Part shown: positions 22,932 to 43,651 of the stretch, piece by piece
Layout: each line of letters begins with the position of its first letter
Numbering within the stretch: the stretch's first letter is position 1
Made by a program: the position numbers and the translations under genes
Assembly: GCA_965223755.1 (NCBI GenBank)
Contig: CBDCXF010000001.1
Location: forward strand, 1,487,356-1,551,355
Origin: Candidatus Multivoradales bacterium
GTDB lineage: Bacteria > Acidobacteriota > Thermoanaerobaculia > Multivoradales > JAHEKO01
Direction: 5' to 3'
DNA: 64,000 bases
Notes under the pieces: generated by a model
What the model was told of the DNA's origin: nothing
What the model saw: only the letters and a program-made list of their open reading frames with translations
Database searches by the model: none

Positions 22932-23507
22932 CTACTTGACCGCGTCTTCCAACTCGTCGGCGATCGCTTCCAACTGCTCGCGGGTTTTGCCGTCGAAGTC
23001 GCGACAGGCGACATCGCAAAACCCGGCCGCGAGTTGGACCTGGTCGGCACCCGCCATCACCTGGTCACCGATCTCAAACAGAATATTGTCTTCCTTGTAG
23101 ATGTGTTGGGTGAGGAGCTGCAAATAGCTGCTTGCAGCCTCGCAGAATTCGTCCTGAGCTGCCTTGCCTTCGTCGGCGTCAAAGCCATCGAGTGCCGCAG
23201 CCATCCGCGCGACCAAACTACGGCCGATTCTGTGCTCCTCGAGCATCACTCCGATGGGCCCACCCTCGCGGGGCACTCCGCGCCGTTCTAACACCGGAAA
23301 CAGCAGGTCCTCTTCTTTGGCGTGATGGCAGGCATCGGCGTAGAGGCGGAAGAACTCCACGCCCTGGGCCAGCAACGAGGTACGCGGTGGCGCCCCACGC
23401 TCCATCTCTCTGACGAGCTTTTCAAGCACCACGAGCATTCTCTTGATGACGCGATGTTCGGCCTTGAGTTCTGCGGTGGGACTGGGCTGAGTGGCGGTTG
23501 AAGTCAT
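22932..23507 (-). CDS. Single-domain hemerythrin (HHE) protein
   Basis: EHRVI, CHHAKEEDLLFP, EHRIGR, QHIYKEDNILF di-iron ligand pattern; RBS AGGGGA. Confidence 0.9.
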   Translation of the reverse strand: MTSTATQPSPTAELKAEHRVIKRMLVVLEKLVREMERGAPPRTSLLAQGVEFFRLYADACHHAKEEDLLFPVLERRGVPREGGPIGVMLEEHRIGRSLVARMAAALDGFDADEGKAAQDEFCEAASSYLQLLTQHIYKEDNILFEIGDQVMAGADQVQLAAGFCDVACRDFDGKTREQLEAIADELEDAVK

Positions 23508-23530: not shown

Positions 23531-23560
23531 TTGACGAACGAACGTTCGTTAAAATACCAT
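23531..23560 (+). promoter_or_regulatory. Sigma70-like promoter with a perfect 14-bp operator palindrome in its spacer
   Basis: TTGACG (23531-23536), N18, TACCAT (23555-23560); AACGAACGTTCGTT at 23537-23550; the predicted start site coincides with ATG 23567 (leaderless). Confidence 0.7.
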
Positions 23561-23566
23561 ATCCAC

Positions 23567-24280
23567 ATGGTTGAATCGCATAAACGCAACCGCGAGCGGC
23601 AACGGATCCTGGCGGCCGCGGCCAGTTTCATCGCCACCGAGGGCTACCACGGCATGACCATGCGGGGATTGGCCAAAGAAACCGGACGCAGTCTGGCATC
23701 TGCCTACAACTACTTCTCTTCCAAAGAGGAGATTCTGTTCGCGCTGCAAAAAGAGGCGTTTCAACAACTGATCTCAACCACCGAGTCTTCGCTTGAGGGG
23801 GTCGAGTCGGCCAACAGCCAGCTCAGCATCTTGATCCTCAACCACCTCACTTACTTCTCGCAGAACACCGACGTCATGCGCGTGCTGGTGCACGAAGCCG
23901 GATCGCTTCCCGCGGAGGGGCGCGATCAGATTCGAGCCCTCAAGACCCGCTACTTCGATCTAGCAAGTCAAGTGACTTCGGAAGTCATTCGGCAAGGCTG
24001 CGGGCACGTCGGCGCCGTCGGCAAACCCGCCAGCAAGGTTGAAGTGGAGCGGCTGACTTACTGCCTCTTCGGCATGCTCAATTGGATCTACGGTTGGTAC
24101 CAGCCCAAGCGCCATGGCGATCTCCCGGAACTGGCTCGCACCATCCACCGGCTCTTCTTGTGCGGAGCGGTTACCCACTGTCCCGAACAAGAAGCGGCGA
24201 CTGAAGTCGACTTGACCAAGACTCCCATGTTGCCTCCGTTGCTCGGTATTGGCGCGGATGCTCTGGGCAAGGGCGACTGA
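23567..24280 (+). CDS. TetR family regulator heading the benzoyl-CoA operon
   Basis: HTH MTMRGLAKETGRSLASAYNYFSSKEEILF; C-terminal LFGMLNWIYGWYQP as in CoA-ester-sensing TetRs. Confidence 0.9.
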   Translation: MVESHKRNRERQRILAAAASFIATEGYHGMTMRGLAKETGRSLASAYNYFSSKEEILFALQKEAFQQLISTTESSLEGVESANSQLSILILNHLTYFSQNTDVMRVLVHEAGSLPAEGRDQIRALKTRYFDLASQVTSEVIRQGCGHVGAVGKPASKVEVERLTYCLFGMLNWIYGWYQPKRHGDLPELARTIHRLFLCGAVTHCPEQEAATEVDLTKTPMLPPLLGIGADALGKGD

Positions 24281-25330
24281 ATGACCACCGAGCAAATGTT
24301 CTCCTGGCAAATGACCGAACCCGGTCAACCACTGGTCTTGAACCGCCGCCCGCTGCCGACGCCTACAGCCGACGAGGTCCTTCTCCAGGTTCGGGCTTGC
24401 GGCCTATGCCACACCGATGTCGCCTTCCTCTATGGCGGTGTGCGCCCTAACGCCGAGCTTCCTTTAACTCTCGGCCACGAAATCGTCGGCACGGTCGTCG
24501 CCACCGGAGTGAAGCACACAGACATGATGGGCCGCGACTACGTGGTGCCGGCGGTATTGCCCTGCGGAAACTGCGACCTGTGCGCCGCAGGCCGGGGCAA
24601 CGTCTGCAGATCGCAGAAGATGCCGGGCAACGACTTCGACGGCGGCTTCGCCTCCCATTTCCTGACTCCCGCCCGTTTCCTCTGCCCCTTACCCCAAGAC
24701 GCCGGTTCGATCGAGGACTACTCGGTGGTTGCCGACGCGGTGTCCACCGCCTACCAGGCAGTGGTGCGCGCCGAAGTCGGGCCGGACGACATGGTCATCG
24801 TGGTCGGTGCGGGAGGAGTCGGCACCTTTGCCGCTCAGGCCGCCAAACACCTGGCCGCTCATGTGGTCGCAATCGATATCGACGACGCGCGGCTCGAAGC
24901 CGTGGGCTCCTCTCTCGACCTGGCGATCAACAGCGCCGAAACGGACGCGCGTGAAATTCGGACCGCGGTGACCGGCTACGAGCGCCAGCACGGTCTCCCC
25001 TCACACCGTCGCAAGATTTTGGAGTGTTCGGGCAGCGCCGCAGGTCAACAGACCGCGTGGTCCCTTCTCGCGCACAATGCCACGCTGATGGTGGTCGGTT
25101 TCACCATCGAGAAGACCCCGCTCCGCCTTTCCAACCTGATGGCATTTGACGCCACCGCTCAGGGCAACTGGGGATGTCTGCCGGAGCACTACCCAGCAAT
25201 TCTCGATCTCGTAGCGCAGGGCGCGATTCAACTCGACCCCTTTGTAGAACGGCATCCGATGAGCTCTTTGAACGATCTGCTGCGCCAGGAGCACCACACC
25301 CGCCGTCCAGTCCTTATCCCGGATTCTTAA
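24281..25330 (+). CDS. had: 6-hydroxycyclohex-1-ene-1-carbonyl-CoA dehydrogenase
   Basis: Zn-MDR motifs CHTD, GHE, C..C..C, QKMPGND..GGFASH; LSNLMAFDATAQGNWGC; operon context. Confidence 0.9.
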   Translation: MTTEQMFSWQMTEPGQPLVLNRRPLPTPTADEVLLQVRACGLCHTDVAFLYGGVRPNAELPLTLGHEIVGTVVATGVKHTDMMGRDYVVPAVLPCGNCDLCAAGRGNVCRSQKMPGNDFDGGFASHFLTPARFLCPLPQDAGSIEDYSVVADAVSTAYQAVVRAEVGPDDMVIVVGAGGVGTFAAQAAKHLAAHVVAIDIDDARLEAVGSSLDLAINSAETDAREIRTAVTGYERQHGLPSHRRKILECSGSAAGQQTAWSLLAHNATLMVVGFTIEKTPLRLSNLMAFDATAQGNWGCLPEHYPAILDLVAQGAIQLDPFVERHPMSSLNDLLRQEHHTRRPVLIPDS

Positions 25331-25369
25331 TCGACTCTTCGAACACCCAGAAAGCAAAAACCAAGAGCA

Positions 25370-26479
25370 ATGAGCAGCCTAAAGAATCACGAACTTCTAT
25401 CCAACGTCGAGTTTTCCAGTATCCACTACGAGCATCGTCCACTGATCGATGCGAATGGCGCCCCAGTACCGGATCTATTCAACGCCTGGATCATCTTCGA
25501 CAACCCCAGCCAGCTCAATTCCTACACCACCGCCATGGTCAAGGAGACCATCCTTGCCTTCCGCAGGGCGTCTGCCGCGAGGGATGTCGTCTGTGTCGTG
25601 TTCACCGCGGTCGGAGAGCGAGCTTTTTGCACCGGTGGCAATACCGCCGAATACGCCGAGTACTACTCCGGGCGGCCGCAGGAGTACCGCCAGTACATGC
25701 GCCTGTTCAACGACATGGTGACGGCGATCCTGGAGTGCGACAAGCCGGTCATCAACCGCGTCAACGGCATGCGTGTCGCCGGCGGCCAGGAGATCGGCAT
25801 GGCCTGTGATTTCACCATCGCCGCCGACACCGCCGTCTTCGGCCAAGCCGGCCCCAAGCACGGCTCGGCTCCCGACGGAGGGTCGACCGACTTTCTGCCC
25901 GGGTACGTCGGCTTTGCCAAGGCGATGGAGTCCTGCACTCTGTGCGAACTGTGGAGCGCCCACGAAGCGTTACGCCTGGGGCTCGTGAACGCCATCGAGC
26001 CGGTGTTGGTCGAAAACGGTGAATTCATCGCCAATCCGCGGGTGGTGACCGACCGTTGGCTCGACGCTTTCGGCCAAATTGTCTACGGCTCGTTTCTGCA
26101 AGGTGACGAACTCGCCGCCGCCAAGGTGCGGACAAACGCTTGTGAAATCGATTTCTCTCGCCTCGATGCAGCCGTCGAACAACTGGCCTGGAAGCTGGCT
26201 CTGACCCTGCCGGATTGCACCACCAAGACCGTCGAGTCGGTGCGCAAGCACAAACTCCAGCATTGGCACCGCAACCGGGAGAGCAACCGCGCCTGGCTGG
26301 CACTCAATATGGCGACCGAAGCCAAGGCGGGGTTCCCCGCTTTTCATTACGGCGAACGCGGGCGCCGTGAAGTGGACTTCCTGGACGCCCGTCGCCGCAT
26401 CGCCCGCGGCGAGGCATGGGACGACGATCTCATCGCCGCCATTTCGCCCCACCGAAGCAAGGACAAGGACGCCTCATGA
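25370..26479 (+). CDS. oah: 6-oxocyclohex-1-ene-1-carbonyl-CoA hydrolase (ring opening)
   Basis: NAWII.DNPSQLNSYTT, FCTGGNTAEYAEYY, GQAGPKHGSAPDGGSTDFLP, NRESNRAWLALNM. Confidence 0.92.
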   Translation: MSSLKNHELLSNVEFSSIHYEHRPLIDANGAPVPDLFNAWIIFDNPSQLNSYTTAMVKETILAFRRASAARDVVCVVFTAVGERAFCTGGNTAEYAEYYSGRPQEYRQYMRLFNDMVTAILECDKPVINRVNGMRVAGGQEIGMACDFTIAADTAVFGQAGPKHGSAPDGGSTDFLPGYVGFAKAMESCTLCELWSAHEALRLGLVNAIEPVLVENGEFIANPRVVTDRWLDAFGQIVYGSFLQGDELAAAKVRTNACEIDFSRLDAAVEQLAWKLALTLPDCTTKTVESVRKHKLQHWHRNRESNRAWLALNMATEAKAGFPAFHYGERGRREVDFLDARRRIARGEAWDDDLIAAISPHRSKDKDAS

Positions 26480-27642
26480 GGGAACCGGTCTTTACGGAGT
26501 GGCAGGGCCGCGATCTAGACGAGGCTCTCGACCTCGCCACCGACTTAGTAGAGGACGCCGCATACCCCACCGTGCGCTCCTGGCGCGATCAGGGCGGGAA
26601 GGTGGTCGGTCATTTCCAGGTCTACTTTCCGGAGGAACTGGCCCACGCCGCCGGCATGCTGCCGGTCAAGATCCGCGGCAGCAACCTGCAGGCGACCCAA
26701 GCGGAATCGCGTTTCGGTTCCTACCTTTGTTCAATCCTCAAAACTTCGCTGGAACTCGCGCTCTCCGGCAACCTGGAACTGGATCTCTTCGTCAGCCACC
26801 CCATCTGCGACGCGGCGCGCAACCTAGCGGCCGTTTGGGGCCGCAATGTCGACTATCCAACGCAGATTCTTTACCTGCCGCAGAACGCCAACTCCGCCTA
26901 CGCTCCCACCTATCTGCGCGGCGAATATGACCGTCTGCTCGGCGAAATGGCCGAGATCGGCGGACGCGAGGTCAGCGACGAGGACCTCGCCGCGTCGATT
27001 CAAGTGTTCAATCGCAACCGCCAATTGCTACGCGAACTCTACGACATCAAGCGCGATCGTCCATGGTTGGTCTCCGCGGTCGAAGCCTACGTACTGGTGG
27101 CTCTTGCCGGCATCCTGCCGCGCGAGGAACACAACCAGTTCCTGGAGTGGGTGTTGCCGCAGCTTCACCGCCGCCAGCGCCGGCAGCAAGACCGCATCCG
27201 GGTGGTGTTCGAAGGCGGTTTCTGCGAACAGCCGCCCATCGATCTCATCCGCACCATCGGACGCTCCTGCTACGTGGTCGATGACGACCTCCTGATCGGA
27301 CTGCGCTGGATTCTCGAAGACATCGACGCCGGCGACGACCCTCTTGGCGCCCTCGCCACCGCCTACCTCGAACAGTCTTCGTACAGTCCGGTGCAGCACG
27401 ATCTGCGCAAGCTCAAGGAGAAGATGCTGCTGGAGCGGATCGCCCAGTCGAAAGCGGAGGCGGCGATCGTCACCGCCGCCAAGATGTGCGAGCCCGGACT
27501 GGAGGAGCAGGTCGCCTACACCCGCGCCCTGGACGAAGAGGGCGTCCCCTATTTCGTCAGCGAATTCCAAGAATCGATGTGGAGTTTCGAGCACCTGCAA
27601 CTGCAGCTTGAGACCTTTGTCGAGAACCTGATGTTCGCTTAA
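26476..27642 (+). CDS. bcrC: Class I benzoyl-CoA reductase subunit C (gamma)
   Basis: 2-hydroxyacyl-CoA dehydratase fold; PEELAHAAGMLP, SYLCSI, HPICDAARNL, KMCEPGL; ATGA overlap with oah. Confidence 0.85.
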   Translation: MREPVFTEWQGRDLDEALDLATDLVEDAAYPTVRSWRDQGGKVVGHFQVYFPEELAHAAGMLPVKIRGSNLQATQAESRFGSYLCSILKTSLELALSGNLELDLFVSHPICDAARNLAAVWGRNVDYPTQILYLPQNANSAYAPTYLRGEYDRLLGEMAEIGGREVSDEDLAASIQVFNRNRQLLRELYDIKRDRPWLVSAVEAYVLVALAGILPREEHNQFLEWVLPQLHRRQRRQQDRIRVVFEGGFCEQPPIDLIRTIGRSCYVVDDDLLIGLRWILEDIDAGDDPLGALATAYLEQSSYSPVQHDLRKLKEKMLLERIAQSKAEAAIVTAAKMCEPGLEEQVAYTRALDEEGVPYFVSEFQESMWSFEHLQLQLETFVENLMFA

Positions 27643-27655
27643 CCAATTCGAGAAG

Positions 27656-28993
27656 ATGACCATGAACCCAAGCTCAGAAACCACTTCTCCAGAGATTCTC
27701 GGCCGCGGCAACTCGGAGGGCGCCTTGCTGTTCAGCACTTGGTTCTCCGATCTCACCGAAACTGCCGACCAGGAGGGCTCCGCCGCCTACGTCTTCGTCA
27801 TGGGTAGCCTGGTCGAAATCCTGCGCAGCTTCGACCTACCGGTGGTCTTTCCCGAGATCAACTCTCTGCAGACCGCAGTACGCCACGTCGCCCATGAGTA
27901 TCTCGATGAAGCCGAAGACTACGGCTACTCCCCCGACATCTGTGGCTATGTCAAGGCCGATGTCGCAGTGCAACTGGGGGGTGGCAAGCACCCCGCGGGA
28001 AAAATTCCGCGGCCTTCGATCGCAGTGCTGACCAACGCCTGCAACACCTACATCAAGTGGGCGGAGATCTGGGAACGACTCTACGACACCCGAGTCTTCA
28101 CCCTCGATATCCCTGGCACCCGCGGCGCCGGCTCCCTGGCAACGCTAGGGTCCGTCGCAGGGGGCAGCGTCAGCCACGACAACGACCAGCGTTACGTCGA
28201 GGCTCAAATCCGCGAGCTCATCTCCACTTGCGAAGACATCACGGGTAAGCGCTTCGACATCGACCGCCTGCGCGAGGTCCTCGGACACTGCAATACGGTG
28301 TCCGCGTCCTGGAAACGCATCATCGATCTCAACCGCACCCAGCCGGCGGTATTCAACGCCCTCACCGACGGCACCATCTATCTTGGCGTCGCCAATGGCC
28401 TGCGTGGCACCCCTGAAGCGGCCAAGTATTTCGCCGACCTGGTCGAAGAAATGGAGCTCAAGGCCGCCGAGGGCATCGGCACGCTGGACGAGGAAACCTA
28501 CCGCCTGACCTTCGTCGGCGTGCCCTGCTACCCGATCTTTCGCCGCTTCAACGAAATGTTCAGTGACTGGGGCGGAGTGTTCGTCAACTCCACCTACCTT
28601 TGGTTTGCGTCGGGAGGCGGCAATCTGGGATTTCAGTACGACCTTGAGCGCCCCATCGAGAGCTTGGCCGAGGGCGTACTGCTGGCGACCCGCGATGCCA
28701 TGGACTCGATGTTCTTCAACGATCGCATCGTCGGCGCGATGATCGAAGACTTCGCCATCGACGGCGTCGTCTACCACCCGATCAAGAGCTGCCGCACCGT
28801 TTCCACTGGCCTCGCCGACGGGAGAAGAGTGCTGATGGAAGAGCACGACGTGGCCACCCTGTTTCTCGAATCCGACATGATGGACCGCCGGGTGATCTCC
28901 GAAGCACAGATGAAAAATCGCGTCGACGCCTTCTTCGAGGGCCTGCAGAGTCGACGGCTGCGCAGCGGCATGGCCGGCGCGGGAGGAAACTGA
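27656..28993 (+). CDS. bcrB: Class I benzoyl-CoA reductase subunit B (beta)
   Basis: [49 protein letters not shown]. Confidence 0.85.
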
Positions 28994-29826
28994 TGGCATA
29001 TGCAGCGGGAGTCGATGTCGGCTCCACCCAGACCAAAGCCGTAGTTCTCAACGAAGGCGAAGAAATCGTCGGCCGTTGCCTCATCGATACTGGGGCCAAT
29101 GTCGTCATCGCGGCGGAGAACGCTTTCGAGCAGGCGCTCCGCGATGCCGACATCCGCGAGACCGAAGTCGAGTTCGTCATCGGTACCGGTTACGGTCGCT
29201 ACCAAATCACCTTCGGCAACGATCAGGTCACCGAGATCTCGTGTCACGGACGCGGCGCCGTGCATATGTTTCCCGGCACCCGTACGGTGATCGACATGGG
29301 CGGCCAGGACACCAAGGCCATTCGCATCGGCAAAGAAGGCATGGTTGACGACTTTTGTATGAACGACAAATGCGCCGCCGGGACCGGGAGGTTTCTCGGT
29401 GCCGCTTCCACCGCTTTGGAGATTCCGCTCGAAGACCTGGGGCCGACCGCTCTGCAGGCGACCAAGGCGGTCCGTATCTCCACCACTTGCACCGTCTTCG
29501 CCGAGTCCGAGATCCTCTCTTGGCTCGGGCGTGGTAAGAAGATCGAAGACATCCTCAAGGGCGTCCACGATTCGATCGCTTCGCGTTCGCTGGGCCTGTT
29601 GCGCCGCGTCGGCATCGAACCCGAAGTCACCTTCACCGGCGGCGTCGCCAAGAACATCGGCATGATCGCGACCCTGGAAAAACAGTTGGGCTTCTCACTC
29701 AACGTCAGCGACGACTCGCACTTCATGGGAGCGCTGGGGGCGGCGCTGTTTGCCATGGACCGCATTCGCGCCGGACGACGGCCGGGACACCGACAAACCT
29801 CCAAACGACTCGCGGAGGCCTCATGA
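28993..29826 (+). CDS. bcrA: Benzoyl-CoA reductase ATPase subunit (BcrA/BzdQ-like, short form)
   Basis: ASKHA ATPase [24 protein letters not shown]; cluster Cys in NDKCAAG and [10 protein letters not shown]. Confidence 0.8.
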
Positions 29827-30659
29827 CCTATACCGCTGGACTCGATGTCGGCTCGACCTACACCAAAGCGGTCATTCTCGACGGCGACGACGAGGTCGTC
29901 GCCAAGTCGATTGCCCGCACCGGTTTTCGCTTGCCGGAGGTGTCGCGGCGACTGTTCGATGAGTGCCTCGCCAACGCTGAACTTTCCGAGGAAGACGTCG
30001 GCTACGTCATCGCCACCGGTTTCGGGCGCCATCAGGTGCCCTTCCGCGACGCCCAAGTCACCGATCTGACCGCCACCGCTCGCGCGGCCTGCCTGCTGTT
30101 TCCCGGCACTCAGACCGTGCTCGACATCGGCGGCCAGACGATGAAAGCGTCGCGCCTGGATGACGCGGCCAAGGTCAAGTCCTTCCGCCTCAACGACAAG
30201 TGCGCCGCTGGGACCGGAGCCTTCATCGAGAAGACCGCCAAATACATGGGCTACTCCACCGAAGAGATCGGGCCATTGGCGGCGACCTCCAAGCAGCCAG
30301 CCTCGATTTCCGGAGTCTGCGCCGTCTTCGCCGAATCCGAGGTCATCAACCACCTCTCGCTCGGCCGACCGCCCGCCGACATCATGCTCGGCGCGATGGT
30401 TTCGCTCATCGGCCGTTCGGTACAGCTCATGAAGCGGGTACGCATGGAGCCCGAATACACCTTGGTAGGCGGAATCTTGCGCTTTGAATCTCTCGCCAGA
30501 GAGATTCGCGAGCAACTCGGCGAGAAGGTCAACGTACCCGGGGGCGATATGGTGCAGTTCGCCGCCGCGCTCGGCGCCGCCTACCTCGGCAAACAGCGCG
30601 TGGGGTTGCGCGCGCCGTTGCCGACGGGCGATTCAAACTCGCTCGCGGCCAGCGTCTGA
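29823..30659 (+). CDS. bcrD: Benzoyl-CoA reductase ATPase subunit (BcrD/BzdP-like)
   Basis: [35 protein letters not shown]; ATGA overlap. Confidence 0.8.
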
Positions 30660-30703
30660 TCCAATACCGCCTGAGCCAAACCACCTGAGCCGAACTGAGC
30701 GCC

Positions 30704-31465
30704 ATGAGCATCACCGTCGATCACGCTAACAACGTCTGCAAGCTGACCCTCGACCTGCCGCCGGGCAACGTCATCGATTTCACGGTCGCTCGGGAACTGG
30801 AAGCGGCAATCCTCGACTGCGGCAACGACTCCGACCTCAAGGCCTTCGTCATCAGTGGCAACGGCAAGAACTTCTCGTACGGGGCCTCCGTCCCCGACCA
30901 CCTGCCCGGCCAAATGGAAGAATTTCTGCCCCAGTTCCACCGCCTGTTTGCGGCGCTGGCGGAAACACGCGTACCAGCCGTCGCCGCGGTACGCGGTCAA
31001 TGTCTGGGCGGAGGCTTCGAACTCGCCGCTTTCTGCCACTTCTTGATCGCCGAGCCCAACGCCAGGTTCGCCGTGCCCGAGATTCAACTCGGGGTGTTTC
31101 CACCCGTGGCCTGTGCTCTCTTTCCCTGGCGGCTGGGTGGCGCCGTGGCCGAGGACCTCATCCTTACGGGACGCAGTCTCGGCGCCGAGGACCCCAAAGC
31201 GTGCGGCCTAGTCACCCAGATGTGCGGCGAAGGGGAGCTAGAACAGGCCACCGACGCATTCGTCGAAGATCGTCTGCTGCCCAAATCCGCCAGCAGTCTG
31301 CGCTTGGCCACCGAGGCGGCGCGCAAGACACTCTACGGGGAATTCTTTCCCAGTCTGGAGAAGCTGGAGCAGCTCTACCTGGAAGACTTGATGGGCACCC
31401 AAGACGCCAACGAAGGCATCCAGGCGTTCCTCGACAAACGCCCGCCCGAGTGGCTCAATCGCTAG
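30704..31465 (+). CDS. dch: Cyclohexa-1,5-diene-1-carbonyl-CoA hydratase
   Basis: Crotonase motifs PPGNVID, FSYGASV.DH, CLGGGFELA, PEIQLGVFPP; LE.LYL.DLM.T.DA.EGI.AFL.KR.P. Confidence 0.88.
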   Translation: MSITVDHANNVCKLTLDLPPGNVIDFTVARELEAAILDCGNDSDLKAFVISGNGKNFSYGASVPDHLPGQMEEFLPQFHRLFAALAETRVPAVAAVRGQCLGGGFELAAFCHFLIAEPNARFAVPEIQLGVFPPVACALFPWRLGGAVAEDLILTGRSLGAEDPKACGLVTQMCGEGELEQATDAFVEDRLLPKSASSLRLATEAARKTLYGEFFPSLEKLEQLYLEDLMGTQDANEGIQAFLDKRPPEWLNR

Positions 31466-31472
31466 CGGGGAG

Positions 31473-31593
31473 GTAGGGGAGGCCCTCGCGGCCTCCCGGG
31501 AGGGGGCAAGCCCCTCCCCTACCGGAATATCGCATTGACGGTCTCGCGTAGGGGAGCCCCTTGTGGGCTCCCGGGAGGGGTAAGCCCCTCCCC
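31473..31593. repeat. Two GTAG-type REP-like palindromic units between convergent genes
   Basis: GTAGGGGAGGCCCTCGCGGCCTCCCGGGAGGGGGCAAGCCCCTCCCCTAC (31473-31522) and GTAGGGGAGCCCCTTGTGGGCTCCCGGGAGGGGTAAGCCCCTCCCC (31548-31593). Confidence 0.75.
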
Positions 31594-31597
31594 GAAT

Positions 31598-32362
31598 CTA
31601 GCGGCTCGGACGGGTTCGCAACGCCGATCCGCGCCTGCGCCGATCCCGATCACGATCTCGGTCGTCGTAGCGATCATCGCGATCGTAGTCGCGTCCGCGG
31701 CGGGAGTCCCTGCGCTTGTCGTACTTGTAGTGCTTCTTCTTATGCTTGTAGTGCTTCTTCTTGTACTTCAAGTAGTAGCCAGGCTTGCCGTAGTGCTTGT
31801 CCCTATACCTGCGATCCCGGTAGTGACGGTCCCGATAGTAGTGATCGTGACCGCCGTATCCAAAGGTGATGTAGAGCCCTGACCGGTACGGACGATGCCC
31901 GGAAAACCGATACCAATCGGAGATCGCGTAGTCGAGACGCCGCATGCTTTCGTGCAAGCGATAGAAGTCGCGATCGACGTGGCGAATCGCATGCAAATCG
32001 CGGCGACTGTGGTGCGCTTCGCGATAGGCGCGCGTCAGGCGTTCAAAATCGCGACCGAGGTGACGATCCCAATAATGGGAACGTCGGACCTCGTGGTGAA
32101 AATGCTTCGCCGCCCGGCACAGTTCATACAACTGATCCAAAGCTCGCGCCTCGCGGTAGTCGCCATGATGGGCGTAACGCTGGGCGTCGCGAAACAAGTC
32201 GTTGGCGGCGTATTCAACGTCACGGGCGAGAGAGCGAATCACGCGTTCATTGCCACCTAGATTTCTGCCATAACCTGAATTTCTGCCGTAAGGGGATCCC
32301 CATGCCATAGCCGGCAAGAGCAGCGCGGCGGTGGTTGCGGTGACGATTGCGGTGCGTTTCAT
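31598..32362 (-). CDS. Secreted His/Tyr/Arg/Lys/Asp-rich hypothetical protein with a low-complexity tail
   Basis: RBS AAAGGAGG before ATG 32362; signal peptide MKRTAIV...PAMA; helical domain then YRDxHY, KKKHYK and DRD repeats. Confidence 0.75.
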   Translation of the reverse strand: MKRTAIVTATTAALLLPAMAWGSPYGRNSGYGRNLGGNERVIRSLARDVEYAANDLFRDAQRYAHHGDYREARALDQLYELCRAAKHFHHEVRRSHYWDRHLGRDFERLTRAYREAHHSRRDLHAIRHVDRDFYRLHESMRRLDYAISDWYRFSGHRPYRSGLYITFGYGGHDHYYRDRHYRDRRYRDKHYGKPGYYLKYKKKHYKHKKKHYKYDKRRDSRRGRDYDRDDRYDDRDRDRDRRRRGSALRTRPSR

Positions 32363-37437: not shown

Positions 37438-37584
37438 GGGCGTCAGTCGGAGGTCACCAGGCGGCCTCATCCGGCATCGCTGCGCCAAGACACCGGTCTT
37501 CCCTAGCCGTCGATCGCAGCGAACTTCCGCGCCATCGTCATTTTTTTGTTGCAATCCCACCTACAGGTGGGAAAATCACTGGTG

Positions 37585-38331
37585 ATGCTTGAGGTCATGG
37601 ATCTCACCCCCTCGCTCGCCAAAGAGGACTACAGCGAGCAACTTCCTTTGCTGCAACGAAAGGCCTGGCGGCTGCAGCGAGCGTGTTGGGTGGCCGGAAT
37701 TCCGACCATATTGATCTTTGAGGGTTGGGACGCTGCTGGCAAGGGAACCATCATTCGCAAACTGACTTCGCGACTGGAGCCACGGGGTTACGAACTCCAT
37801 CACACTACCGACCAACCGCGCACCCATGAGAGCGGCTTGCCTTGGATGTGCCGGTTCTGGACCTCCATCCCGGCGCGCGGTTCGATGGCCATCTACGATC
37901 GCAGTTGGAATCGTGTCGCGGTGGAAGAAAAAGTCAACGGCTGCGAGGAGCTGCGCTGGCGGCGTGCGTTACGAGACATCGGCGACTTTGAGCGCACCCT
38001 GACCGACGACGGCTACGTACTCATCAAGTTCTTCCTCCACATCAGTAAAGAAGAGCAAGCTGAGCGATACGACGCATGGAAAGAAAACCCTGGCACAAGC
38101 TGGAAAGCTCTAGAAGGGAGCTGGCACAAGCCCAAGCGCTACCAGTCGCGACTCTGCGCCACCGAAGAGTTGCTGCAGCACACTGAGTTTCCCCACGCCC
38201 CTTGGCGGTTAGTGGCCGCAACCGATCAGCGTTGGGCCACCATCGATGTCCTCGCGCACCTCACCGAAACGCTGACCCAAGTGCTCGTCGAACGCGCGCC
38301 GAGCGCTCTTGAGAATGGGGAGGATTCGTAG
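37585..38331 (+). CDS. ppk2: Polyphosphate kinase 2 family protein (N-half of a bidomain Pap-type enzyme)
   Basis: FEGWDAAGKG, YDRSW, IKFFLHISKEEQ, APW.LV.ATD.RWA. Confidence 0.9.
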   Translation: MLEVMDLTPSLAKEDYSEQLPLLQRKAWRLQRACWVAGIPTILIFEGWDAAGKGTIIRKLTSRLEPRGYELHHTTDQPRTHESGLPWMCRFWTSIPARGSMAIYDRSWNRVAVEEKVNGCEELRWRRALRDIGDFERTLTDDGYVLIKFFLHISKEEQAERYDAWKENPGTSWKALEGSWHKPKRYQSRLCATEELLQHTEFPHAPWRLVAATDQRWATIDVLAHLTETLTQVLVERAPSALENGEDS

Positions 38332-39053
38332 GTGCTCAACCAAGTCGACCTCGGGCAGCGACTGGAACGCGACGAATATCGGCAGCGGCTGCATGAGTTG
38401 CAATTGCGCGTCGCGCACTTGGCGCGCGACCTTTACCAGCAGCAACGTACGCTGGCGATTGTCTTCGAGGGTTGGGACGCAGGCGGCAAAGGCGGCGCCA
38501 TTCGCCGCATGACAGAGAGCCTCGACCCACGCGCATTTCGAGTGCTGGCCTATGCGGCGCCAACCGACGAAGAAAAGGCCCATCACTACCTGTGGCGCTT
38601 CTGGCGGCGACTGCTGCCTCCGAGCGAAAAGCAGATCTTGATCTTCGACCGCAGTTGGTACGGACGAGTCTTGGTCGAACGCGTCGAAGGTTTCGCCCAA
38701 GAGGAGGAGTGGCGGCGCGCCTATCGCGAAATCAACGACTTTGAACGGCAGTTGGTCGACGCCCAAGCGACGGTGATCAAGTTCTGGTTCCATATCGACC
38801 AGGACGAGCAACTGCGCCGCTTCGAGCGCCGCAAGCGTGTACCACACAAGAGCTGGAAACTAACCGATGAAGACTGGCGCAATCGCGACCGTTGGGATGA
38901 ATACGAGCAGGCCGTCCAAGACATGTTGATCAAGACCAGTACTTCGCAAGCACCTTGGACCATTGTCGCCGGTAACGACAAACGTTGGGCGCGAGTGCAA
39001 TCGCTGCAGACCGTGGTCGACGCTCTCGAGGCGTGGAAGCAAGAGGCCGCGTC

Positions 39054-39057
<4 letters not shown>
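38332..39057 (+). CDS. ppk2: Polyphosphate kinase 2 family protein (C-half of a bidomain Pap-type enzyme)
   Basis: FEGWDAGGKG, FDRSWYGRVLVERVEG, KFWFHI, WKLTDEDWRNR, GNDKRWAR; own GGAGG RBS. Confidence 0.9.
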
Positions 39058-42640
<3,583 letters not shown>

Positions 42641-42644
<4 letters not shown>

Positions 42645-43651
42645 ACCTCAGCACCAACTACCTAGGCCTCAAGCTTCAACATCCGCTGATGGTCGGCGCG
42701 TCTCCTCTGGCCGATGACTTGGATCAAGTGCGACAACTCGAAGACGAAGGCTCGGCCGCCATCGTCATGCACTCGCTATTCGAAGAACAGATCGAACGCG
42801 AACAGTTCGCCTCCCAATTCGCTTTCGACTACGCCGCCGACTCTCACGTCGAGGCGCTTTCCTACCTGCCGGAACCGGAGGCGTTCGCGCTCGGACCCGA
42901 TGAGTACCTGGAACAACTGCAACGTGTTCGCGATGCAGTCTCGATCCCGGTCATCGGGTCGCTCAACGGCACCCACGCCGGTCGTTGGCTTTCGTACGCA
43001 CGGGCCATGGAAGAAGCTGGGGCCTCGGCGCTCGAACTCAACAACTATCAAGTCGTATCCGAATTTGCGCTCAGCGCTCAGGACATCGAGAACGAATTGG
43101 TCGAAATGGTGCGGAGCGTCAAAGAGCGCGTCGGCATTCCGGTGGCGGTCAAGCTCGCTCCCTTCTACTCCGCTCTGCCGCATTTGGTCGCGCGTCTGGT
43201 CGAAGCCGGCGCCGACGGCGTCATCCTCTTCAACCGGTTTCTGCAACCGGATGTCGACCCCGAGCTATTGGAAGTCGAGCGTCGCCTCCACCTCTCAACT
43301 CCGGAGGAGCTTTCTCTGCGGCTCACTTGGCTAGCGATTCTCTACGGTGAGACCGGCGGATCCTTGGCCGCCTCGGGGGGAATTCATGCTGGCGTCGACG
43401 CGGTCAAAGCGCTGGCCTGCGGTGCTGACGCCATTCAAGCGGTGTCGGCGATTTTGCGCCATGGGCCGAAGCGCATCGGTGAACTCGTGGGCGAGTTGCA
43501 AGGCTGGCTCGACGAAAACGAGTACGAATCTCTGCAGCAGTTGCGCGGGGCTCTCAGCCTGCAGCGTTGCCCCGATCCCGAGGCCTACCGCCGAGTCAAC
43601 TACATTCGCATTCTGCAGAGTTGGCGTGGTCTAGACTCCCACCATGGCTGA
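42641..43651 (+). CDS. Dihydroorotate dehydrogenase-like flavoprotein (nifJ-associated type)
   Basis: LSTNYLGLKL.HPL..GASPL, SLFEEQI, IPVIGSLNG, ALELN, PVAVKL.PFY, LFNRF.QPD, SGG.H. Confidence 0.88.

Follow-up and report, generated by a model that had tools for sequence, protein, structure and literature searches.

Three types of class I benzoyl-CoA reductase (BCR) have been listed, namely BCR, MBR ("methyl-BCR," Thauera chlorobenzoica), and BZD (Fuchs et al., 2025; PMC11971306), and ATP-dependent enzymes of this class are usually found in facultative anaerobes (PMC11971306). The Bcr type is represented by BcrCBAD of Thauera aromatica and BadDEFG of Rhodopseudomonas, the Bzd type by BzdNOPQ of Aromatoleum/Azoarcus (PDB 8s02), and the MBR type by MbdONQP of the betaproteobacteria Thauera chlorobenzoica 3CB-1 and Aromatoleum (Azoarcus) sp. 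CIB. In the latter strain, control of the mbd cluster lies with MbdR, a repressor of the TetR family whose effector is 3-methylbenzoyl-CoA (PMC4424350). More distant members of the same radical enzyme superfamily are the 2-hydroxyacyl-CoA dehydratases (HADs), such as HadBC/HadI and HgdAB/HgdC, which use one homodimeric activator, recycle the electron catalytically, and do not reduce arenes (PMC11971306). Here, we describe a reductase operon in a 64,000-nucleotide stretch of DNA (hereafter the window) from Candidatus Multivoradales bacterium. At 23567–31465 on the + strand, eight co-oriented and tightly packed genes follow one another in the order tetR-had-oah-N-O-Q-P-dch, as the original prediction had described them. 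To judge from the sequence comparisons given below, the four subunits N, O, Q, and P very probably form a class I benzoyl-CoA reductase that depends on ATP and is of the MBR (MbdNOQP) type, and the operon would serve the central anaerobic benzoyl-CoA pathway under TetR control.

When the four subunits were compared with the PDB by phmmer, the top solved relative was in every case 3-methylbenzoyl-CoA reductase (9g87, 9gai, 9gal, and 9gba). The gamma subunit N (26476..27642, 388 residues), the MbdN/BcrC-like electron-transfer subunit of the catalytic dimer with its iron-sulfur (FeS) clusters, matches MbdN (9g87_B) with 541.6 bits, and the beta subunit O (27656..28993, 445 residues as the longest open reading frame, ORF), the MbdO/BcrB-like active-site subunit, matches MbdO (9g87_A) with 519 bits. 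The ATPase subunits, alpha or Q (28993..29826, 277 residues) and delta or P (29823..30659, 278 residues), match MbdQ (9gai_D) and MbdP (9gai_C) with 422.6 and 300.8 bits, respectively. The next, unrelated types reach at most 229 bits; for example, BzdN and BzdO score 94 and 74.5 bits (8s02), and 2-hydroxyacyl-CoA dehydratases 96–125 bits. The solved MBR chains have 388, 445, 269, and 273 residues, and the MBR system further resembles that of the window in its two short ATPases without the BcrA insertion, its cluster cysteines, an almost identical substrate pocket, and a TetR-family regulator in the gene neighborhood. The differences are the host, which is an acidobacterium here, the lower-pathway genes, which in the window pass the had and oah equivalog models, and the gene order, which is N-O-Q-P here and O-N-Q-P in strain CIB.

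The curated models gave a complementary result. All Bcr-type cut-offs were missed (score/cut-off: TIGR02263, 240/421; TIGR02260, 187/487; TIGR02259, 218/578; TIGR02261, 136/313 bits), while true Bcr-type references score 676–862 bits on TIGR02260. The Bzd-type cut-offs were missed as well (TIGR03190, 96/454; TIGR03191, 84/449; TIGR03192, 187 and 133/380 bits). Among the NCBIfam matches of the window proteins there is no MBR-specific equivalog model, and NCBIfam appears to be without equivalog models for this type. The proposal in the original prediction of a distinct BCR subclass is therefore borne out insofar as the enzyme is neither a Bcr nor a Bzd equivalog, but not insofar as the subclass was thought to be undescribed. 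Because all four subunits match MbdN, MbdO, MbdQ, and MbdP best, and because MBR has already been named as the third class I type, the window reductase is, on these sequence comparisons, not a new subclass; its type has been described and structurally solved.

Phylogenetic trees of the subunits agree with this assignment. The references in the trees were labeled by curated hidden Markov models, with the crystallized MbdONQP absent from them: the Bcr type was represented by L087–L094, L103, L104, and L106, which carry a 437-residue BcrA (L103 and L104 in the order had-oah-dch-C-B-A-D), and the Bzd type by L096/L105 (907 bits on TIGR03191 and 574 bits on TIGR03192). In the O tree, the window protein falls into an MBR-like clade of 27 sequences with a support of 99, apart from the Bcr-type clade (support 100) and the Bzd-type sequence, and the next relatives are the uncharacterized clusters P0134 and P0135 with 45–46% identity. 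The nearest neighbors of the window are the same in the O, N, and ATPase trees, L005 being closer than L006 and L006 closer than L015, and there is no sign of a chimeric origin of the four in these trees. Taken with the PDB matches, this places the subunits essentially congruently within one described subclass. A careful tree of the ATPases, with a dehydratase activase as its root, groups Q with BcrA (87/83) and P with BcrD (95/88) and leaves the Bzd ATPases outside. By identity, too, all four subunits come closer to Bcr than to Bzd references (N, 33–38% against 26%; O, 30–32% against 24%; Q, 50% against 40%; P, 36% against 33%). The combination of a Bcr-like catalytic pair with short ATPases is a look that belongs to the MBR type as a whole and is no new mosaic.

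The described systems other than MBR share the general plan of the window reductase and depart from it in detail. Bcr-type enzymes have the same four-subunit architecture and similar cluster layouts; they differ in sequence (catalytic subunits 30–38% and ATPases 32–50% identical) and in BcrA, which reaches 437 residues in Bcr-type loci because some 170 residues are inserted internally, behind about residue 55. A long BcrA had been correctly anticipated, although as the result of an N-terminal extension, which it is not. An alignment with BcrA of L103, L104, and L106 places no such insertion in Q or P, and both carry NDKCAAGTG and C(T/A)VFAESE, as had been noticed before. Two short ATPases are not a novelty of this operon, since MbdQ and MbdP themselves have 269 and 273 residues. 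The Bzd type, like the window reductase, is a class I enzyme with two short ATPases, a three-cysteine active-site cluster, and thioester tyrosines; its catalytic subunits are 24–26% identical to those of the window, and N shares only three cysteine positions with BzdN.

The ligands of the metal clusters are conserved. In O, Cys96, Cys129, and Cys379 align with the active-site [4Fe-4S] ligands Cys95, Cys128, and Cys380 of BzdO, and the tyrosines that bind the thioester oxygen, Tyr98 and Tyr314, are kept. A HMMER alignment of O with MbdO further gives identity at Phe47, Glu67, Cys96, Tyr98, Cys129, Tyr314, Ala318, Cys379, Arg380, Thr381, and Val382. In N, Cys85, Cys111, and Cys338 have counterparts in BcrC and BzdN, and Cys250 has one in BcrC. 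Both Q and P keep Cys127 and Cys166, which, by comparison with HgdC, are presumably the ligands of the subunit-bridging cluster. Furthermore, in a distribution scan with one genome per species, the order N-O-Q-P is kept in all of the best 80 related loci that include neighboring genes. The congruent subunit trees, the constant gene order, and the active-site residues matching those of MbdO all speak for a relationship to the MBR type; this relationship, the gene identities, and the conserved ligands can be read directly from the comparisons.

Membership in the superfamily by itself leaves room for another function. Pfam resolves only generic families in the reductase subunits, HGD-D in the catalytic subunits N and O and BcrAD_BadFG in the ATPases Q and P, all four belonging to the BCR/HAD superfamily, and public records call the homologues "2-hydroxyacyl-CoA dehydratase," "hypothetical protein," or, through KEGG-style names, "BcrB." It could thus be argued that the operon encodes no arene reductase but a 2-hydroxyacyl-CoA dehydratase or another BCR/HAD radical enzyme with its activator; the superfamily, the ATPase fold, and the bridging-cluster cysteines are indeed common to the dehydratases and the window enzyme. 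We regard this as hardly credible. The HadB and HadC models score 125–154 bits, far below the 519–542 bits of MbdO and MbdN; the operon encodes two different ATPase subunits, while the dehydratases have a single homodimeric activator; and the reductase genes sit between had/oah and dch.

The genes around the reductase appear to supply a lower pathway. The gene had (24281..25330) encodes 6-hydroxycyclohex-1-ene-1-carbonyl-CoA dehydrogenase (TIGR03201, 441 bits, above the cut-off of 338.65), oah (25370..26479) encodes the ring-opening 6-oxocyclohex-1-ene-1-carbonyl-CoA hydrolase (TIGR03200, 527 bits, above the cut-off of 464.45), and dch (30704..31465) encodes a probable cyclohexa-1,5-diene-1-carbonyl-CoA hydratase with TIGR03189 as its top match and is the only match to this model in the genome. 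With Dch, Had, and Oah, the operon would encode all steps from benzoyl-CoA to 3-hydroxypimeloyl-CoA. This bears on a second alternative, in which the enzyme is dedicated to substituted benzoates, that is, to 3-methyl- or halobenzoyl-CoA, as is the mbd cluster of Aromatoleum sp. CIB. The name of the closest characterized enzyme, 3-methylbenzoyl-CoA reductase, speaks for it, as does the TetR-family repressor MbdR that governs the mbd cluster too (PMC4424350). Such a dedication is nevertheless very unlikely: had and oah score above the cut-offs of equivalog models made for the benzoyl-CoA pathway, the genome encodes an equivalog of benzoate-CoA ligase, and the regulator is FadR-like with no specific link to MbdR. 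The window reductase is also the sole BCR of its host, N and O being the only HGD-D catalytic pair in a 98%-complete genome. MBR, moreover, is reported to reduce benzoyl-CoA as well (work of Tiedt and colleagues in 2018). A general benzoyl-CoA reductase of the MBR type is therefore the preferred reading.

In the distribution scan, at least 587 species genomes carry a relative. The best 80 relatives are 67–87% identical to the window reductase and come from Acidobacteriota, Planctomycetota, Chloroflexota, Gemmatimonadota, Actinomycetota, Zixibacteria, Elusimicrobiota, Ignavibacteriota, and Calditrichota, together with some Pseudomonadota. Phyla are intermixed in the O tree, Ignavibacteriales standing with Zixibacteria and Kiloniellaceae with Actinomycetota (support 100 each), which points to frequent horizontal transfer. 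Closer to the host, an MBR-type homologue was found in 5 of the 24 other genomes of its family, a sixth having only a 36%-identical relative, and in none of the 16 genomes searched from other families of its order. Thauera-like had and oah accompany about a third of the related loci, and the others have only distant crotonase and dehydrogenase genes (33–40% identity). A second layout was seen in nine loci (L010, L012, L017, L028, L048, L050, L054, L057, and L079), with distant oah-like and dch-like genes (33–40%) upstream of N-O-Q-P and a had-like gene downstream; this layout may represent a different lower pathway, e.g., for substituted rings. There is also an orphan O-like gene (L107; G473:C33, 5367–6848), 61% identical to the window O and with no adjoining N, Q, or P, in a genome that has a complete MBR-like locus (L098) in addition.

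Several observations weigh against a simple assignment to the MBR type. First, the active site of O departs from that of MbdO at position 132 (Tyr in O, Phe in MbdO), position 289 (Val against Thr), and position 128 (Ala against Tyr), and MbdO has a 9-residue insert after residue 279 that O is missing. Second, MbdO would lie at the base of the conserved clade of the window, or sister to it and just outside, a placement that comes from score triangulation rather than from a tree. It is drawn because MbdO scores below the level found within the clade (519, 480, 474, and 468 bits to the window O, P0131, L107, and L108, which score 493–632 bits among themselves) and above the level of P0134 and P0135 (364–420 bits to the same four). 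Third, an AU test on a larger, quick data set does not reject a clade of Q with BzdQ (p = 0.81), and the tree so constrained even has a higher likelihood than the quick free tree; that the ATPases are nearer to Bcr than to Bzd is accordingly favored by the careful tree and the identities but not settled. Fourth, dch stays under its TIGR03189 cut-off (206 against 292.5 bits) and is missing behind P in L005, the only genome of the same genus. Finally, the TetR has no specific link to MbdR, and its 60 listed matches carry generic names.

The first two of these points raise the question of whether the cross-phylum clade of the window, which has Tyr132 and is free of the MbdO insert, is a functionally distinct fourth subtype in need of its own class, with another substrate range, proton delivery, or oxygen handling. 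The clade is tight, with 67–87% identity across phyla and internal scores above those of MbdO; two search patterns derived from it do not fit MbdO; and hemerythrin genes recur beside its operons. The difference at position 132 is the sole feature that might carry functional meaning. Tyr132 is invariant in the 85 of 85 clade members examined, where MbdO and BcrB have Phe, and the position aligns with His131 of BzdO, one of two proposed acid/base residues beside the iron-bound water (PMC11971306). Against the window O, however, MbdO (519 bits) is far closer than P0134 (417 bits) or P0135 (398 bits), the pocket residues are nearly all identical to those of MbdO, the subunit lengths equal those of the solved MBR chains, and the lower-pathway genes are the same as in Bcr-type loci. 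A single residue difference is no evidence for a different function. We thus consider a fourth subtype quite unlikely and keep to the MBR type.

The distance between the window enzyme and the characterized MBR can be given as about 55–65% identity, a figure estimated from bit scores and a partial alignment count rather than measured. Proteobacterial MBR-like genes of two loci (L102 and L100) score 474 and 468 bits to the crystallized MbdO, and neither of them is MbdO itself. A tblastn search of plasmids for the named Bcr, Bzd, and Mbd references returned only distant HAD-like matches with 21–26% identity. In the literature search, we found no paper describing the PDB 9g87/9gai structures, no paper on a BCR of Ca. 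Multivoradales, no study of an MBR-type enzyme from outside Betaproteobacteria, and no characterized member of the conserved environmental clade of the window.

The junctions of the operon are mostly overlaps or short gaps. The genes tetR and had abut, had and oah are 39 nucleotides apart, and the oah stop and the N start share ATGA at 26476–26479; then follow a 13-nucleotide gap (N/O), a 1-nucleotide overlap (O/Q), a 4-nucleotide overlap (Q/P), and a 44-nucleotide gap (P/dch). N is read as a protein of 388 residues from ATG 26476, since its start shares ATGA with the oah stop, and the longest ORF from 26416 (408 residues) was rejected. Behind dch, two copies of a 46-nucleotide G+C-rich double-hairpin element resembling repetitive extragenic palindromes occupy 31473..31593 (strand not assigned) and likely mark the end of the operon. 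Across the genome, the core motif of this element, GGGAGGGG-N(1-3)-AAGCCCCTCCC, is present 28 times, at this place of the window and at 26 others.

In L005, a block of hemerythrin/tetR-had-oah-N-O-Q-P is present with 77% DNA identity and without dch. Collinearity is interrupted by 9923–13142 of L005 and 30660–31960 of the window: it breaks off precisely where P ends and is regained about 1.3 kb on in the window and 3.2 kb on in L005. As judged by this pair of genomes, dch is either a recent gain in the window host or a loss in the L005 lineage.

The regulator, at 23567..24280 on the + strand, is a TetR-family protein (PF00440 and TetR_C_24) of the FadR/PfmR-like, acyl-CoA-sensing kind. Its top NCBIfam match is the Bacillus-type FadR, and its best solved relatives are 3vpr, 3whb, and 1vi0. 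Just upstream, a consensus scan found a promoter-like site, TTGACG-N18-TACCAT (23531..23560, + strand), whose spacer contains a perfect palindrome, AACGAACGTTCGTT, at 23537–23550. The block CTTGTTGACGAACGAACGTTCGTTAA is identical in L005, with diverged flanks. The ATG at 23567 lies directly behind this conserved promoter/operator block and was taken as the start of TetR; TTG 23528, the start of the longest ORF, was rejected. The palindrome is likely the TetR operator, as predicted from its sequence and place. The operator of MbdR is ATAC-N10-GTAT (PMC4424350), and the palindrome of the window does not match it. By analogy with MbdR (PMC4424350), an aryl-CoA is a plausible inducer.

From these elements, the following scheme may be proposed, for which we infer the substrates, the inducer, and the electron donor. 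A ligase whose gene lies on the other contig would convert benzoate to benzoyl-CoA, and an aromatic acyl-CoA would free TetR from the promoter palindrome, in analogy with MbdR and with FadR-like TetR proteins. Reduced ferredoxin, encoded elsewhere and plausibly re-reduced by pyruvate:ferredoxin oxidoreductase (PFOR), would feed the [4Fe-4S] cluster bridged between Q and P by Cys127 and Cys166, and ATP hydrolysis would push the electron first to the FeS clusters of N and from there to those of O. The three-cysteine [4Fe-4S] cluster of O (Cys96, Cys129, and Cys379), with its free iron site, would reduce the ring to cyclohexa-1,5-diene-1-carbonyl-CoA. Finally, Dch would hydrate the dienoyl-CoA, Had would oxidize the product, and Oah would open the ring to give 3-hydroxypimeloyl-CoA.

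As had been foreseen, neither an AMP-forming ligase nor a small ferredoxin is encoded in the cluster or elsewhere in the 64-kb window, and a motif search of the window for ferredoxins gave only ferredoxin-like domains inside PFOR and one 588-residue ORF. The supply of CoA esters and electrons indeed appears to be encoded elsewhere in the genome, which comprises 3.24 Mb in two contigs. Among the sequencing runs listed for it there is no RNA run, and the four DNA runs derive from a single sample. A benzoate-CoA ligase equivalog (C2:514412, 440 bits, above its cut-off) stands alone on contig 2, and two candidates for small ferredoxins are encoded at distances of 170 and 600 kb. A 4-hydroxybenzoyl-CoA reductase alpha-like gene on contig 1 (G000:C1:290004-292274) scores 773 bits on TIGR03194, short of the cut-off of 995, and suggests that benzoyl-CoA may also be formed from 4-hydroxybenzoate. 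Within the window, 7.5 kb downstream of the operon, the stretch 38985–43651 encodes a single-chain PFOR (TIGR02176, 1733 bits) followed by a dihydroorotate-dehydrogenase-like gene; PFOR might provide the reductase with reduced ferredoxin. At 37546–39057 of the window, there are two adjacent genes like those of PPK2-family polyphosphate:AMP phosphotransferases, which may be split halves of a two-domain enzyme.

A non-proteobacterial host had been suspected from the sequence, and indeed the host shares its GTDB genus with L005 ("Candidatus Multivoradales bacterium," Acidobacteriota, Thermoanaerobaculia). It looks facultatively aerobic because its genome has four haem-copper oxidase genes, and this is the usual setting of a class I BCR. 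Divergent from the operon, on the − strand at 22932..23507, lies a hemerythrin-domain gene (Pfam PF01814, 81.6 bits) that is 72% identical in L005. Hemerythrin homologues adjoin MBR-like operons in at least 10 other loci from several phyla (L005, L006, L023, L027, L029, L035, L039, L041, L061, and L108). The protein may be an O2 or NO sensor, or a protector of the oxygen-labile reductase, and is possibly co-regulated with it.

What remains mildly interesting about the window enzyme is that it belongs to a clade without a known characterized member, which differs from MbdO at one likely catalytic position, as the alignments suggest. A stronger view would be that it represents a biochemically untouched class I lineage spread across many phyla, with about 70% identity between them, which serves as the principal ATP-dependent arene reductase in soils and sediments and departs from the MBR of Proteobacteria in the way protons are delivered, in substrate range, or in oxygen handling. 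This seems unlikely to us; if the lineage did differ in oxygen handling, the recurring hemerythrin neighbor would fit. For the enzyme family, failing the Bcr models as well as the Bzd models does not in itself make a class I BCR new, for the MBR type fills that gap and has solved structures. MBR-like operons have a very wide distribution among uncultured non-proteobacterial phyla, and it may be largely on the MBR type that soils and sediments rely for their potential to degrade arenes anaerobically with ATP.

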